Source: Promethearchaeati archaeon (GTDB taxonomy: Archaea; Asgardarchaeota; Heimdallarchaeia; Heimdallarchaeales; Heimdallarchaeaceae). From it: a stretch of 64,000 nt of DNA. The position numbers and the translations under genes were made by a program. The DNA is taken from NCBI GenBank assembly GCA_013166775.1, contig JABLTJ010000011.1:1-64000 (forward strand), read 5' to 3'. The notes beneath the pieces are model-generated. The model worked only from the letters and a program-made list of their open reading frames with translations, had not been told where the DNA came from and searched no databases. This document shows positions 10,716 to 18,296 of the stretch, one piece after another. Position 1 is the stretch's first letter. Each line of letters opens with the position of its first letter.

Positions 10716-11837
10716 ATGGGAAAGAAAAGAGATTGGTTAGTAGTACATGAAGAGCCACTTGCAGGTTACTCGATGCAGAACATTTTCAGAGTATTATGGG
10801 ATAATAAATTTAGAATTCACCCAAAGTATTGGTTAAGATTAGGTTATGGTATAGGTTTGAGTTTTATTACTATTCCATTAAAGGTTTGGCAAAAAATCCG
10901 ACATCATAGAAAGATAAAGAAGACAGAAATAAAAGAAGATCCTATTTTTATTATTGGTCATTATAGAACAGGAACTACCTATTTGATGACTTTAATGGCT
11001 TTTGATAAATCCAAGGGATATGTATCTAATTTAGAGGGATATGCAACTTTGTTCTATTTAGGTGTTCCAAGATTCGCAAGATGGATAATGAAAGCATCAT
11101 TACCAGATGTAAGACCTATGGACAATGTTATCATGGGAATTGAAGAACCAACTGAAGAAGAGTACTGTATAGGGACATTTACTAGATATGGATATTATAC
11201 TGGATTCATTTTTCCTCGTAATTTTGACTTATACTCACGATTTTTAACATTTGAGGGTATGCCTAAAGACAAAGCGAAATGGAAAAAAGCTTACTACTAT
11301 TTAGTTCAAATGCTCACCTATGGGCATAAAGGTAAACAACTGTTCTTGAAGAATCCAACTCACAGTTATAGGATTCCAGATTTACTGGAAATGTTTCCTA
11401 ATGCGAAATTCATTCACACTTACAGAAATCCATACGAAGTATATCTTAGTACTGTAAAGTTCTTTGATGAAGTTTTTGCTATTTATACACTCCAAACATG
11501 GGACAAAGAGAAAATGAAGCAGGATATTTTGGATAATTACAAACTATTATACGAATATCAAAATAAAGATTTACATTTAATTTCAGAGGACAGAATTGTT
11601 CATATCAAATACGAAGAATTCATTCAGACACCAGCTGAAACTATGGAAAGAGTCTACAAGGATTTGAATATAAGTGGATGGGAAGAATACAAGGATGATA
11701 TTATAAAGTATGCTGTATCACAAAAACGAGAGTACGTTCCAAACAATCACAAGATTGATTCTGATACCATTCGTAGAGTTAATGAACATTGGAAGGATTT
11801 TATGGAACAATATGATTATGAAAAATTAGAACCGTAG
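10716..11837 (+). CDS. PAPS-dependent sulfotransferase (Sulfotransfer_3 / Stf3-like)
   Basis: 5'-PSB motif PIFIIGHYRTGTT, RPMDNV...PTEEEY, LKNPTH, FPNAKFIHTYRNPYEV (3'-PB), IKYEEF. Confidence 0.92.
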   Translation: MGKKRDWLVVHEEPLAGYSMQNIFRVLWDNKFRIHPKYWLRLGYGIGLSFITIPLKVWQKIRHHRKIKKTEIKEDPIFIIGHYRTGTTYLMTLMAFDKSKGYVSNLEGYATLFYLGVPRFARWIMKASLPDVRPMDNVIMGIEEPTEEEYCIGTFTRYGYYTGFIFPRNFDLYSRFLTFEGMPKDKAKWKKAYYYLVQMLTYGHKGKQLFLKNPTHSYRIPDLLEMFPNAKFIHTYRNPYEVYLSTVKFFDEVFAIYTLQTWDKEKMKQDILDNYKLLYEYQNKDLHLISEDRIVHIKYEEFIQTPAETMERVYKDLNISGWEEYKDDIIKYAVSQKREYVPNNHKIDSDTIRRVNEHWKDFMEQYDYEKLEP

Positions 11838-12013
11838 TATTTGTAAAAACTATTTTCTCTTTTCTTATTTTCAATCTAATTTTCTTTAGTATTTACAAAA
11901 ATGTGAAAACACAATTCTGAAATATAACAGAATTGCTAGGCTTAAATTTTAAATACAGATGTTATTCGAACTCAAATCAGATTATTAAATCTCATTTGAT
12001 TCGGTGCTATCTA

Positions 12014-12892
12014 ATGTGCGATCATTGCTTAAAACATGGAACAGCAGGTAAATGGTATCTTAATGCAAAATTCTATTCAGATGAATTAGCAGAAGAACTT
12101 GATCTTAAAGAGTTTCTTTTGGAACAATACAAAACCTTTGAAGCAATGCAAGTGAGAAAATTTGGAGGTTTCAGTGCGGTAGGAATGGGTTATAAAAGGC
12201 AAATGCCAATAATTGGGCGAATCGTTAAGCATACGGCAGAAAAAATGCTTCATTCAAAAAAACCTTCAAGAAACCCATTCAAAGCAGAAGGTCATATTGG
12301 ACAAGTAGTGCCATTAGATGATGCAATAGCTATTTTGGAAACTTGTATCCCTGAAAATAGTTTAATCATGAAATACTGCATGTGTAGATATATGCATAAG
12401 GGAGAGAAAGAAGCTTGTTGTATAAATTTTGGAATTATGTCAGAAATCATTGATAAACTTCCACGATTCATTCCTGAACCAGAAGATAGTAAGTTTAGAC
12501 TTACAAAAGAAGAAGCAATAGAAAAATTTACTGAGTTTAATAAAAAAGGATACATAGGAACTATATGGTATGGAGCCTATCCTTATATAAACAACCTTTG
12601 CGCCTGCCAGACACCTATGTGTGCTGGTTTTAGACCTCGTACAGAATTTGGTATAAAATCAATTTTTAAAGCTGAATATGTGGTGGAGAACAATCCTAAC
12701 AATTGTCAAGGATGCAAAAGATGCATAACGATGTGCCAGTTTGGTGCTATTGAATTTGATGATAAGACTAAACGAGCTGTGATTGATCAGTCTAAATGTT
12801 ATGGATGTGGAAATTGTTTACTTGTTTGCAGATTTGAAGCTCTGAATTTGGTTACTCGAAAAGAAATTCCAGCTTTAGCGGGAGATTACTAG
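12014..12892 (+). CDS. Cys-rich 4Fe-4S dicluster protein
   Basis: MCDHC, CMCR, CC, LCACQTPMC, and two CxxCxxCxxxC motifs (CQGCKRCITMC, CYGCGNCLLVC). Confidence 0.88.
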   Translation: MCDHCLKHGTAGKWYLNAKFYSDELAEELDLKEFLLEQYKTFEAMQVRKFGGFSAVGMGYKRQMPIIGRIVKHTAEKMLHSKKPSRNPFKAEGHIGQVVPLDDAIAILETCIPENSLIMKYCMCRYMHKGEKEACCINFGIMSEIIDKLPRFIPEPEDSKFRLTKEEAIEKFTEFNKKGYIGTIWYGAYPYINNLCACQTPMCAGFRPRTEFGIKSIFKAEYVVENNPNNCQGCKRCITMCQFGAIEFDDKTKRAVIDQSKCYGCGNCLLVCRFEALNLVTRKEIPALAGDY

Positions 12893-12905
12893 TAGTGGTG
12901 CTATC

Positions 12906-13163
12906 ATGGGGAAAATTAAAATTAAAATTGACTATTCAATCTGTGGTGATGGAAACAAAATCGATCCTCGAGATTGCACTATTTGCTTGAAGATCTGTGA
13001 ACCAGCTATTTTTCTTTTACATCCATCATTGAAATTTCAAAAAGAGGATGATCCCTACGATCCAAAGATTTGGAGAGTTACACCAGTATATCCCTCACTT
13101 TGCACCCTCTGCATGAAGTGTGTGGAACAATGTCCTGAAAATGCAATAAGAATACGTAATTGA
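12906..13163 (+). CDS. Ferredoxin (2x 4Fe-4S type)
   Basis: C...CTICLKICEP and CTLCMKCVEQCP. Confidence 0.88.
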   Translation: MGKIKIKIDYSICGDGNKIDPRDCTICLKICEPAIFLLHPSLKFQKEDDPYDPKIWRVTPVYPSLCTLCMKCVEQCPENAIRIRN

Positions 13164-13173
13164 GTTGATTTCT

Positions 13174-14211
13174 ATGTCTAAAAAGAAAGCAGAAAATGAA
13201 AACTATCCCTTGAAAAACCTTGGAAGATGTCTTGTGATTGGTGGAGCAGGAATGCTTGGACTTGAAATCGTACTGCAATTAAATAAAGAGGGACATTTAG
13301 TACGCATCTTAGATCTCGAACCAGTAGACATTGAAGGAGTGGAATCAATAGTTGGTGATATTAGAAACCTAGATGTTGTTGAAGAAGCTTGTGAGGGAAT
13401 GGATACAGTTTTTCAAACTGCTGCAGCTGTTTGGAATCCTGGGACTCCCAGACGTTTTTATGATGAAGTAAACGTTATGGGTAACCAGAATGTTATTGAT
13501 ACTTGCATTAAATTTGGAATCCAGAGATTTGTTTACACCTCAACTCTAGATGTAGTTGTAGATGGAAAAAAACCAATTGTATATGCAGATGAATCTCTTC
13601 CTTATCCAAAGAAACTACCTAAGGATAACTATTCAAGAACAAAGATTCTCGCTGAAAAAGCGTCAATAGAAGCGAATAATGAAAATGGATTACTAACTGT
13701 TTCCTTGCGACCAGTTGGAATGTATGGACCAAGAGATAAATATCATATAGCAAATATTATTCAAGTAGCTCAAAGCAAGAATAACATTAAGCTAGGAAAT
13801 GGTACTGCAGAGTTTTCGCATGTTTATTCAGAAAACGCAGCTTATGCACACGTACTAGCAGCAAAACATCTTTATCCTGGATCAAAAGTTCCTGGAGAAT
13901 GCTACTTCATTACGGATCATCAACCAGCTGATAATCTATTTGTATTCATGAAACCCTTTCTTGAAGCGCTGAATCTACCTGTTCCAGAGAAGTACATTCC
14001 GTACAAAATAGCCTATCTTTTGGCGTGGTTTGCTGAAAAACTTGCACCTAAATCAAATTTCAACAGATTTGCTGTTATACAAACATGTGTAGATCATACA
14101 TTTGTTAGTGATAAAGCTGAAAGAGATTTTAATTACAAACCTATTGTATCCAAAGAGGAAGCTTTTGATAAGACTGTTGAATGGTTCAAAAACGAATCAG
14201 GATTAGTTTAA
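13174..14211 (+). CDS. 3-beta-hydroxysteroid dehydrogenase / NSDHL-like extended SDR
   Basis: GGAGMLG, FVYTST, ADESLPY, YSRTK (YxxxK), LRPVGMYGPRD, VYSENAAYAHVLAA, GECYFITD. Confidence 0.88.
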   Translation: MSKKKAENENYPLKNLGRCLVIGGAGMLGLEIVLQLNKEGHLVRILDLEPVDIEGVESIVGDIRNLDVVEEACEGMDTVFQTAAAVWNPGTPRRFYDEVNVMGNQNVIDTCIKFGIQRFVYTSTLDVVVDGKKPIVYADESLPYPKKLPKDNYSRTKILAEKASIEANNENGLLTVSLRPVGMYGPRDKYHIANIIQVAQSKNNIKLGNGTAEFSHVYSENAAYAHVLAAKHLYPGSKVPGECYFITDHQPADNLFVFMKPFLEALNLPVPEKYIPYKIAYLLAWFAEKLAPKSNFNRFAVIQTCVDHTFVSDKAERDFNYKPIVSKEEAFDKTVEWFKNESGLV

Positions 14212-14268: not shown

Positions 14269-14658
14269 ATGAGCAAGATAGGAAAACTCATTTCTCGCTT
14301 ATTCACTTTAGCTGTTTTTGGTGCTTGGTTTACTTTTGTCATCTGGGGTCTCAAAACTTGGGGAACACCAGATCCATTTGTGAGTGAAAAAACAACTATA
14401 ATATTGCTAAGTCTTCTCACCTTCATAGGTATGTTTATTCTCTTCATCATTGCCTCTGCACTTGGTGCAATTGGTAAAAAGAGGAAGAAGGAGGAAAAAG
14501 AAGAGGAGAAAAAGTTTTCATTTACAACAAAAGATGGAGACAAAATGGAGTTCAAAGGTGGAGAGGATTTTGACATAGAGAAGATACCTGCTCCATTCAG
14601 AGAAATAGGTAAGAAATTCATGGAAATGGCTAAAAAAGAAATGGATAAAGAAAAATAA
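14269..14658 (+). CDS. Small two-TM membrane protein with charged C-terminal tail
   Basis: Two hydrophobic segments; AGGTGA SD upstream. Confidence 0.75.
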   Translation: MSKIGKLISRLFTLAVFGAWFTFVIWGLKTWGTPDPFVSEKTTIILLSLLTFIGMFILFIIASALGAIGKKRKKEEKEEEKKFSFTTKDGDKMEFKGGEDFDIEKIPAPFREIGKKFMEMAKKEMDKEK

Positions 14659-17585: not shown

Positions 17586-18296
17586 TATAAAATAAGAAAA
17601 CTGTTTAAAGATACAAATGCTGCAAAGGAAAGAAATTTTGGTGTGAGTTATTTTAGCTTCAATCATAAAAACGGAAGATGTATAGAATGTGAAGGAGAAG
17701 GAGAAAAGAGAACTGATCTTCAATTCATACCAGATATAAGAAACAAATGTTCTCTTTGCAACGGAACTAGATATAATGGAGATGTTCTTGAAGTCATATA
17801 TAGAGGAAAGAACATTGCAGAGGTGCTCGATATGTCTGTAGAGGAAGCAATGGAGTTTTTCAAAGATGATTCAACACTTTCGTACAAACTAGGTGTGATG
17901 AATGACTTAGGATTGGGTTATCTAAAGCTGGGGCAGTCAGCAACAACACTTTCTGGGGGAGAAGAACAAAGGATTAAACTTTCGAAGGAGCTTGGGAAGA
18001 TAAAGAGAAAAAAGGACAACTTAGACTTGCTTGATGAACCTACAGTCGGTTTACACATGGAAGATATTCAGAAGCTTCTTACTAGTTTAAATAAAATAGT
18101 CGAAGATGGTAACACAGTACTAGTTATTGCACATCATTTAGATGTTATTAAAGCAACTGATTATGTGATAGATCTTAGTCCTGAAGGTGAATCAGATGGA
18201 GGTAGAATAATTGCTCAAGGAAGCCCAGAAGAAGTTGCAGAGGTAACTGATTCATATACAGGGAAGTATCTTAGACCTTTACTTAACAAGGTTTAA
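17586..18296 (+). pseudogene. uvrA: C-terminal fragment of excinuclease ABC subunit A
   Basis: In-frame YKIRKLF...FSFN..GRCIECEG, CSLCNGTRY, LGQSATTLSGGE, LDEPTVGLH, SYTGKYL. Lacks most of UvrA including Walker A; several consensus residues are altered. Confidence 0.85.

Follow-up and report, generated by a model that had tools for sequence, protein, structure and literature searches.

The subject of this work is a group of four co-oriented genes at positions 10716-14211 of a contig from a Heimdallarchaeaceae archaeon (GenBank JABLTJ010000011.1, positions 1 to 64,000; this whole stretch of 64,000 nucleotides is referred to as the window). They encode a sulfotransferase, an iron-sulfur (Fe-S) protein, a small ferredoxin-like subunit (Fd) and a short-chain dehydrogenase/reductase (SDR). 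An earlier note had read the four genes as a candidate pathway of sterol or isoprenoid modification in an archaeon, of possible relevance to eukaryogenesis, with the substrate inferred. Analysis of open reading frames (ORFs) and Pfam domains bears out the four genes and their common orientation, and the last three are indeed as closely spaced as had been described (about 10-13 bp), with 13 nt between the Fe-S protein and ferredoxin genes and 10 nt between the ferredoxin and SDR genes. One conserved pathway of four genes is not borne out: only the last three genes, which we call the FeS-Fd-SDR triad, are conserved, and they carry a promoter-like element of their own. The object of interest is a widespread triad with an unclassified Fe-S domain and not a four-gene archaeal sterol pathway.

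The coordinates of the genes are collected in Table 1. In the ORF list the Fe-S gene starts at a TTG codon (11933), which gives an ORF of 319 aa. Since every homologue begins with Met-Cys-Asp, we take the ATG at 12014 to be the true start. The gap that separates the sulfotransferase from the Fe-S gene is AT-rich and 176 nt long. About 60 nt upstream of the Fe-S start it contains the TATA-like element CTTAAATTTTAAATA, and the motif is found in 10 of 11 aligned upstream regions, whether the sulfotransferase is present or not. Judged by its position and conservation, this element is likely the promoter of the triad.

Table 1. Genes and features at 10716-14211 of the window
Feature	Position	Strand	Description
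Sulfotransferase	10716-11837	+	373 aa, Sulfotransfer_3 family; Pfam PF13469 at 97 bits
TATA-like element CTTAAATTTTAAATA	11941-11955	+	conserved upstream of the Fe-S gene; putative promoter
Fe-S protein	12014-12892	+	292 aa; N-domain (residues 1-225), then C-terminal 2x[4Fe-4S] ferredoxin domain
Ferredoxin-like subunit (Fd)	12906-13163	+	85 aa, 8 conserved Cys; Pfam Fer4 families
SDR	13174-14211 (ATG), alternative TTG 13165	+	345-aa extended SDR, 3beta-HSD/NSDHL family

Conservation of the FeS-Fd-SDR triad

Species-representative genomes were searched with the Fe-S protein, which yielded 17 true loci. The triad occurs in identical order in all 17 loci, whereas the sulfotransferase is adjacent to it in five genomes of a single genus only. 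We also scanned metagenomes, obtaining 80 loci with a G+C content from 0.31 to 0.71. Wherever the contig was long enough, most of them have the Fe-S gene together with the ferredoxin and the SDR at 56-67% identity, the exceptions being L053, L061, L071, L075, L085 and L096-098, which have no orthologous SDR downstream. Because the same gene order recurs among the roughly 100 loci that were fetched, the arrangement is far beyond chance. Across the same set of about 100 loci, no neighbour other than the triad genes themselves recurs between lineages.

The Fe-S protein has some 600 homologues; the named ones that share 60-62% identity belong to metagenome-assembled genomes (MAGs) of Spirochaetota and Actinomycetota. 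The ferredoxin is its obligatory partner: the Fd gene directly follows the Fe-S gene in 20 out of 20 Asgard loci fetched, including those of paralogues with 35-50% identity. In these 20 loci the SDR accompanies only the orthologue clade of the Fe-S protein. The ferredoxin and the SDR can even be found in a single polypeptide, as a public protein of 454 aa (P0462) is a natural fusion of the two (ferredoxin at residues 1-83, SDR at 94-434), although this is a single case. Since gene order, the pairing with Fd and the TATA-like element are all conserved, the triad is a self-contained, mobile and strongly conserved operon, and in all probability it constitutes the functional unit, with the sulfotransferase left outside. 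In other words, it is an uncharacterised redox operon common to many anaerobic bacteria and Asgard archaea. Literature searches on Asgard NSDHL/3beta-HSD, on Heimdallarchaeota sulfotransferases and on archaeal NSDHL returned nothing relevant, and we found no paper on the triad.

This distribution bears directly on the supposed link with eukaryogenesis. The triad is widespread in metagenome contigs and its named relatives are bacterial (about 60% identity), so that it is not special to archaea, and with its spread outside Asgard archaea the eukaryogenesis argument falls. When the tree of the Fe-S protein is rooted with Asgard paralogues, its basal grade consists of Heimdall sequences, and those presumed to be bacterial fall into a single nested clade. 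Because the outgroup was sampled from Asgard genomes only, no direction of transfer is drawn from this topology.

Several observations concern the surroundings of the triad. One Heimdall family has a PlsY-type glycerol-3-phosphate acyltransferase (PF02660) directly 3' of the triad (L019:10258-10992, also L017 and L117), that is, a bacterial-type lipid gene in an archaeon. In the same family the PlsY gene is followed by an isochorismatase-family gene and an APH/choline-kinase-like gene, and a major facilitator superfamily (MFS) transporter precedes the triad. A contig represented among these loci, DATKZI010000026.1 (L019/L040), is labelled 'Candidatus Bathyarchaeia' at NCBI. As the same contig (G288:C26) is classified with the Heimdall class to which the genome of the window belongs, the public label is probably wrong. 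In the window itself, a gene for a predicted membrane protein of 129 aa with a Lys/Glu-rich tail and no Pfam family (14269-14658) lies 57 nt 3' of the SDR, a position kept in the Heimdall genus only. Farther downstream (17643-18296) lies an ORF of 217 aa that looks like the C-terminal ABC half of UvrA; zinc-finger-like CxxC pairs and an LSGGE signature are visible in its translation. It has no Pfam match at E 1e-5 and no N-terminal part nearby, and could be what remains of a gene or a fragment that stands alone.

The sulfotransferase

The product of the first gene matches Sulfotransfer_3 (PF13469) with 97.2 bits against a cut-off of 27, over profile positions 1-216, and all the motifs pointed out earlier (GHYRTGTT, RPMDN, EEPTEEEY and LKNPTH) are in the translation. 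Its relatives in the PDB are mycobacterial Stf-type chains (2z6v, 2zq5). Some homologues at 47-62% identity bear the automatic JGI name Stf3, and no NCBIfam model matched. The genome also encodes the expected source of the sulfate donor 3'-phosphoadenosine-5'-phosphosulfate (PAPS): a PAPS synthase (ATP sulfurylase fused to APS kinase) is present as a 579-aa ORF on contig C70. The characterised enzymes with which the sulfotransferase invites comparison are the mycobacterial Stf3 (omega-hydroxy-beta-dihydromenaquinone-9 sulfotransferase), which is involved with sulfomenaquinone, and BT_0416, the cholesterol sulfotransferase of Bacteroides (PMC7404182, PMC9417993). It resembles both in its Sulfotransfer_3 family membership and Stf-type structural relatives. 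It differs from Stf3 in that no P450 adjoins the gene and that MqnA (PF02621) was not found in the genome, which is 88.7% complete; the classical Men pathway was not searched. It differs from BT_0416 in its lack of clustering, since the PAPS synthase lies on C70 and not beside the sulfotransferase.

Where does this gene stand in relation to the triad? It sits between a helix-turn-helix (HTH) gene and the triad in the five genomes already mentioned (G000, G151, G142, G297 and G202), all from one Heimdall genus. Among the 17 loci of the genome scan, it is present only in the two nearest relatives. Six other loci of the genus have the upstream HTH gene immediately next to the Fe-S gene. No sulfotransferase was found in the 80 metagenome triad loci, and no adjacency of sulfotransferase and triad in other Heimdall families. 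The two also occur apart from each other: G145 and G273 have the triad with no sulfotransferase match, and six genomes (G133, G115, G166, G003, G026 and G074) have the sulfotransferase with no Fe-S match. In the triad-less G003 an orthologue with 79% identity adjoins the helicase that follows the triad in the window, and in G026, which also lacks the triad, the sulfotransferase lies 4 kb from the orthologue of a 987-aa gene located upstream in the window. Most species of the genus have the sulfotransferase orthologue in another conserved context, which has no evident meaning. The contexts of orthologues elsewhere (winged HTH proteins, a metallophosphoesterase, a hydrolase, an MFS transporter) are likewise uninformative.

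The sulfotransferases in the slot are not all alike. Those of G000, G151 and G142 are about 93% identical to the one in the window, and those of G297 and G202 are 54-56% identical and belong to a distinct, well-supported clade. These other-clade genes (L122:1496-2608 and L123:7267-8379) occupy the same HTH-triad slot between flanking genes that are 72-80% identical. This could be due to replacement by a paralogue or to a second insertion at the same site. It could also reflect selection for adjacency, in other words a selected pairing. No other observation speaks as strongly for a functional link of sulfotransferase and triad, and against keeping them apart.

Such a link is the essence of the four-gene pathway, in which a lipophilic alcohol, be it a novel lipid, a quinone or a sterol that has been scavenged, would first be remodelled by the SDR and the Fe-S proteins and then sulfated with PAPS by the Stf3-like enzyme. 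Besides the two clades in one slot, the adjacent and co-oriented genes, the PAPS synthase and the JGI name Stf3 on homologues speak for this pathway. Nonetheless, we consider it improbable: adjacency is limited to the five genomes of one genus, with none of 80 metagenome loci, genomes with only one of the two components occur in both directions, the gap and the conserved promoter-like element intervene before the triad, and the sulfotransferase holds the same region in triad-less relatives while its orthologues elsewhere stand in unrelated contexts. The simplest reading is that the sulfotransferase lies beside the triad through regional synteny within one family. It is probably a separate transcription unit and may at most represent a lineage-specific tailoring step.

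As a separate matter, Heimdallarchaeaceae show a strong expansion of Sulfotransfer_3 proteins: a genome may have as many as six copies, which stand in varied contexts and also as tandem pairs and triplets (for example, G288:C14:232707-235092, G300:C155:6055-9438 and G199:C150:110625-112792). This suggests that sulfation is a major, unexplored activity in these archaea.

Relationships of the SDR

The earlier placement of the SDR in the 3beta-hydroxysteroid dehydrogenase (3beta-HSD)/NSDHL/OleD clade, and not among the sugar epimerases, is upheld by profile and model scores, on which the assignment of its class rests. The protein matches 3Beta_HSD (PF01073) with 199 bits vs 102.7 bits for Epimerase (PF01370). 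Among solved structures human NSDHL is the best match (E 9e-38); the alignment, from which an identity of about 36% over 234 aa was counted, places the Tyr-x3-Lys of the SDR on the NSDHL motif. The nucleotide-binding motif G23-G24-x-G26-x-x-G29 (GGxGxxG) and S123, Y153 and K157 are kept in at least 95% of 59 orthologues. Asp47 is also conserved across the 59, which suggests a preference for NAD rather than NADP. Although the genome has 12 matches to PF01073, the triad SDR is the only strong 3Beta_HSD member. Among curated models the best is OleD (NF042422) with 188.9 bits, with NF042423 giving 155.1 bits; the cut-off of 580 is not reached. The scores of HpnA (TIGR03466; 104 bits vs a cut-off of 367.65) and SdmB (NF052578; 69 bits vs 600) also stay below their thresholds. 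By these scores the SDR is classed as a true member of the 3beta-HSD/NSDHL/OleD clade and as an equivalog of no named enzyme.

The names in databases are divided. JGI uses the NSDHL enzyme name for several orthologues, and public names are mostly 'NAD-dependent epimerase/dehydratase' or 'nucleoside-diphosphate-sugar epimerase'. Taken at face value, the public names would make the SDR a nucleotide-sugar epimerase or dehydratase and the cluster a part of glycan synthesis. We find this hardly credible in view of the gap between the PF01073 and PF01370 scores, the low scores of the GalE, RmlD and RfbB (dTDP-glucose dehydratase) models (37.4, 38.8 and 24.8 bits, respectively, far under their cut-offs) and the lack of recurring glycosyltransferase neighbours in about 100 loci.

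A relationship to OleD deserves more attention. The SDR might reduce beta-keto acids in the manner of OleD or LstD, or be a decarboxylating beta-hydroxy-acid dehydrogenase; in either case it would act on non-polycyclic substrates in the metabolism of fatty-acid-derived lipids or olefins. OleD is, after all, the best-scoring curated model and its match is full-length. NSDHL and OleD both act on beta-hydroxy or beta-keto acid motifs, which fits as well, as does the PlsY-like acyltransferase after the triad in one Heimdall family. However, the score is far below the cut-off, no OleABC-like neighbour recurs in about 100 loci, and the variant operon described below points to 3-ketosteroid-type flavoenzymes. 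An OleD-like function is therefore quite unlikely in our estimation.

Compared with NSDHL/ERG26, the triad SDR shares the extended SDR fold, the GGxGxxG motif and the catalytic Ser, Tyr and Lys. It differs in its constant coupling to two Fe-S proteins, a feature that NSDHL never shows, in its occurrence in anaerobes and in additional conserved cysteines and a histidine. These are Cys73, Cys111, Cys305 and His308 (the last two in a QTCVDHT motif), which are present in at least 95% of the 59 orthologues and lie outside the usual SDR catalytic set. Their role may be that of a contact, or of a metal site, on the side of the Fe-S partners.

The Fe-S protein and its ferredoxin

Ferredoxin domains of the dicluster type (Fer4) make up the C-terminus of the Fe-S protein (its last ~60 residues) and the whole of the small ferredoxin. 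Both have the features of 2x[4Fe-4S] proteins, namely Fer4_7/Fer4_9 Pfam matches and eight conserved cysteines. In the small ferredoxin the motif of the first cluster is stretched (C-x10-C-x2-C-x3-C-P), with the conservation of the cysteines seen across 85 sequences. Fold matches of the ferredoxin domain reach Z 9.2. In these modules the two proteins are like the C-terminus of HdrA, PreA of DPD, PorD and NuoI. What sets the Fe-S protein apart from all of them is its N-domain of 225 aa, which has neither a Pfam family nor a solved relative.

Matches to Fer4_7 and related Pfam families are confined to residues 252-305 of the 319-aa ORF, and the N-domain has no Pfam or NCBIfam match. The model of the whole Fe-S protein was poor (predicted local distance difference test score, pLDDT, 68.5) and matched ferredoxin domains only. 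Folded alone with a deeper alignment, the N-domain gave a pLDDT of 88.2 and a predicted TM-score of 0.85. A Foldseek search of solved structures with this domain returned nothing better than E 0.36, and exhaustive VIA alignment against 48,161 representative chains gave a best Z of 3.4, far under the usual level for unrelated models. The CCG/HdrB-type domain was a specific candidate; PF02754 gave no Pfam match to the N-domain, and an HdrB-like fold is not among the fold matches listed. A search of the ESM Atlas with the Fe-S protein found unnamed or Fer4 clusters only, and the protein has no structure there. The family is compact, comprising 208 clusters at 50% identity, nearly all of the same two-domain architecture, and no informative fusion was found among the 208 representatives.

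Across 76 diverse members, the invariant positions of the N-domain are C2, C5, Q97, C122, C124, C136, C196, C198 and C203, with H8 near-invariant. Within the orthologue clade, which apparently spans both domains of life, the N-domain shows 57-92% identity and keeps many polar residues. Through the eight invariant cysteines and the histidine it probably binds further Fe-S or metal centres. Because the conservation and the eight extra cysteines exceed what an electron wire needs, we read the N-domain, from its residue pattern, as a metal site that either is catalytic or binds the substrate.

A different gene cluster is associated with a paralogous pair. In other Asgard genomes (L022:4732-9584, L024, L030 and L031) a 50%-identical FeS-Fd paralogue is clustered with four genes, which encode a stand-alone PPDK_N ATP-grasp protein, a small swivel-like protein, a 385-aa protein without assignment and a DUF7065 protein. 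From its gene content this cluster looks like a split phosphotransferase system. A corresponding link between the triad and a PPDK_N phosphotransferase, through the 987-aa gene upstream, was rejected: there is no such gene in the 80 metagenome triad loci. The PPDK_N-type gene accompanies only the 50%-identical paralogue of other Asgard genomes; in this genus its presence is a matter of regional synteny.

Steroid-type context of a variant operon

Does the genome offer an endogenous substrate for an NSDHL-like enzyme? Neither a squalene/phytoene synthase (SQS_PSY, PF00494) nor an ERG25-type hydroxylase (FA_hydroxylase, PF04116) had a match in the 88.7%-complete genome, and the sole match to a cyclase profile is a marginal one (SQHop_cyclase_C, 26 bits, in a 369-aa ORF). 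Because synthesis genes were not found and the cyclase match is marginal, an endogenous sterol or hopanoid substrate is unsupported. In this respect, too, the window differs from the NSDHL/ERG26 setting, as no ERG25-like oxidase, squalene synthase or convincing cyclase was found in its genome.

A hint of the substrate comes from elsewhere. A group of contigs from digester metagenomes (L080/83, L085, L096-98, L107 and L063, the last of which belongs to the group at 75% protein identity) carries, in one run and ahead of the orthologous FeS-Fd pair, genes for three enzymes: a 3beta-HSD-like SDR (PF01073, 186 bits), a 580-aa FAD_binding_2 flavoprotein and a classical SDR. The best solved relative of the flavoprotein is the 3-ketosteroid delta4-(5alpha)-dehydrogenase of Rhodococcus (4at0), with E 1.6e-68 vs ~1e-36 for fumarate reductases. 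The combination of a 3beta-HSD and a ketosteroid dehydrogenase serves redox chemistry of the steroid A-ring. The variant operon is thus a hint, and not a proof, of A-ring chemistry on steroid-like alcohols or ketones. It resembles bacterial steroid A-ring clusters in joining the FeS-Fd pair to a 3beta-HSD-like SDR, a 4at0-type flavoprotein and a classical SDR; the operon and the genome of the window differ from them in lacking the flavoprotein. To our knowledge, an Fe-S partner of this kind has not been described for the known steroid A-ring clusters. A steroid-like or alicyclic substrate with a 3-hydroxy or 3-oxo group is accordingly possible for the triad, though we would not call it the probable outcome.

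A possible mechanism

Based on these data, we lean, if only slightly, toward the view that the triad is one oxygen-independent redox enzyme system expressed from its own promoter and made up of the SDR and an Fe-S/ferredoxin heterodimer. The SDR would interconvert a ring secondary alcohol and the ketone with NAD(H), on an alicyclic and probably lipophilic substrate of a steroid- or terpenoid-like kind. The heterodimer would pass low-potential electrons along as many as four [4Fe-4S] clusters until they reach the Cys-rich N-domain, and the latter might carry out a second, reductive step on the activated 3-oxo intermediate, such as saturation of a neighbouring conjugated C=C bond. What the data show directly is which genes are present, how the triad is conserved, that Fd always accompanies the Fe-S protein, to which family the SDR belongs and with which catalytic residues, and that the N-domain matches no known fold. 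That the proteins form a complex, which way the electrons flow, what the second reaction is and to which class the substrate belongs are the elements that we infer.

Several points weigh against this scheme. SDRs do not accept single electrons, and it is therefore conjecture that the SDR and the Fe-S proteins are coupled. The steroid-type context comes from one related contig group and amounts to roughly one observation, and the genome of the window has no close homologue of the variant flavoprotein. The N-domain of the orthologue clade keeps several Arg and Lys residues, and with these the substrate could be anionic instead of purely lipophilic. Finally, paralogous FeS-Fd pairs of Asgard archaea stand beside quite different genes (PPDK_N with a swivel domain and DUF7065; DUF362; GlcD/CCG; radical SAM), and for this reason the pair could be a general electron carrier.

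In its full form, the last point implies that the FeS-Fd pair is a general low-potential electron module without a catalytic site, serving whichever enzyme is nearby, and that the SDR is an ordinary NAD-dependent dehydrogenase. The variant operon is in keeping with this, for it contains a flavoprotein able to accept electrons. However, the identity of the ~225-aa N-domain among orthologues and its invariant Cys, His and Gln go beyond the needs of a wire, and the SDR, the only constant partner, has no use for a one-electron donor. On these grounds we doubt that the pair is such a module.

It is tempting to go further and suggest that the triad, with a previously unseen catalytic Fe-S fold, hydrogenates or otherwise reduces a sterol-like A-ring, the product being additionally sulfated in one Heimdall genus. 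This is a speculative extension, which we regard as unlikely in that specific form. We know of no assignment for the enzymes of sterol-to-stanol reduction outside the gut. IsmB, the new coprostanol 5beta-reductase, was considered as a lead and set aside, being an Fe-S flavoenzyme of another superfamily. That sterols turn into stanols under reducing conditions is itself known from observation (for example, PMC12179283).

Implications

The triad bears on neither sterol biosynthesis in Asgard archaea nor eukaryogenesis, and the upstream sterol genes that were searched for were not found in the genome. Its interest lies elsewhere. If the three proteins are one enzyme, they would define an uncharacterised and widespread anaerobic redox system, which would pair a eukaryote-type sterol dehydrogenase family with an Fe-S domain lacking a Pfam family and a solved structure. 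Sediments, digesters and peat are settings where sterol-like or alicyclic alcohols may be transformed anaerobically, and the triad would then also be a gene candidate for that process. Should the A-ring reduction prove true, the triad would be a candidate for the unassigned microbial conversion of sterols to stanols in anoxic sediments, both in Asgard archaea and in many anaerobic bacteria.

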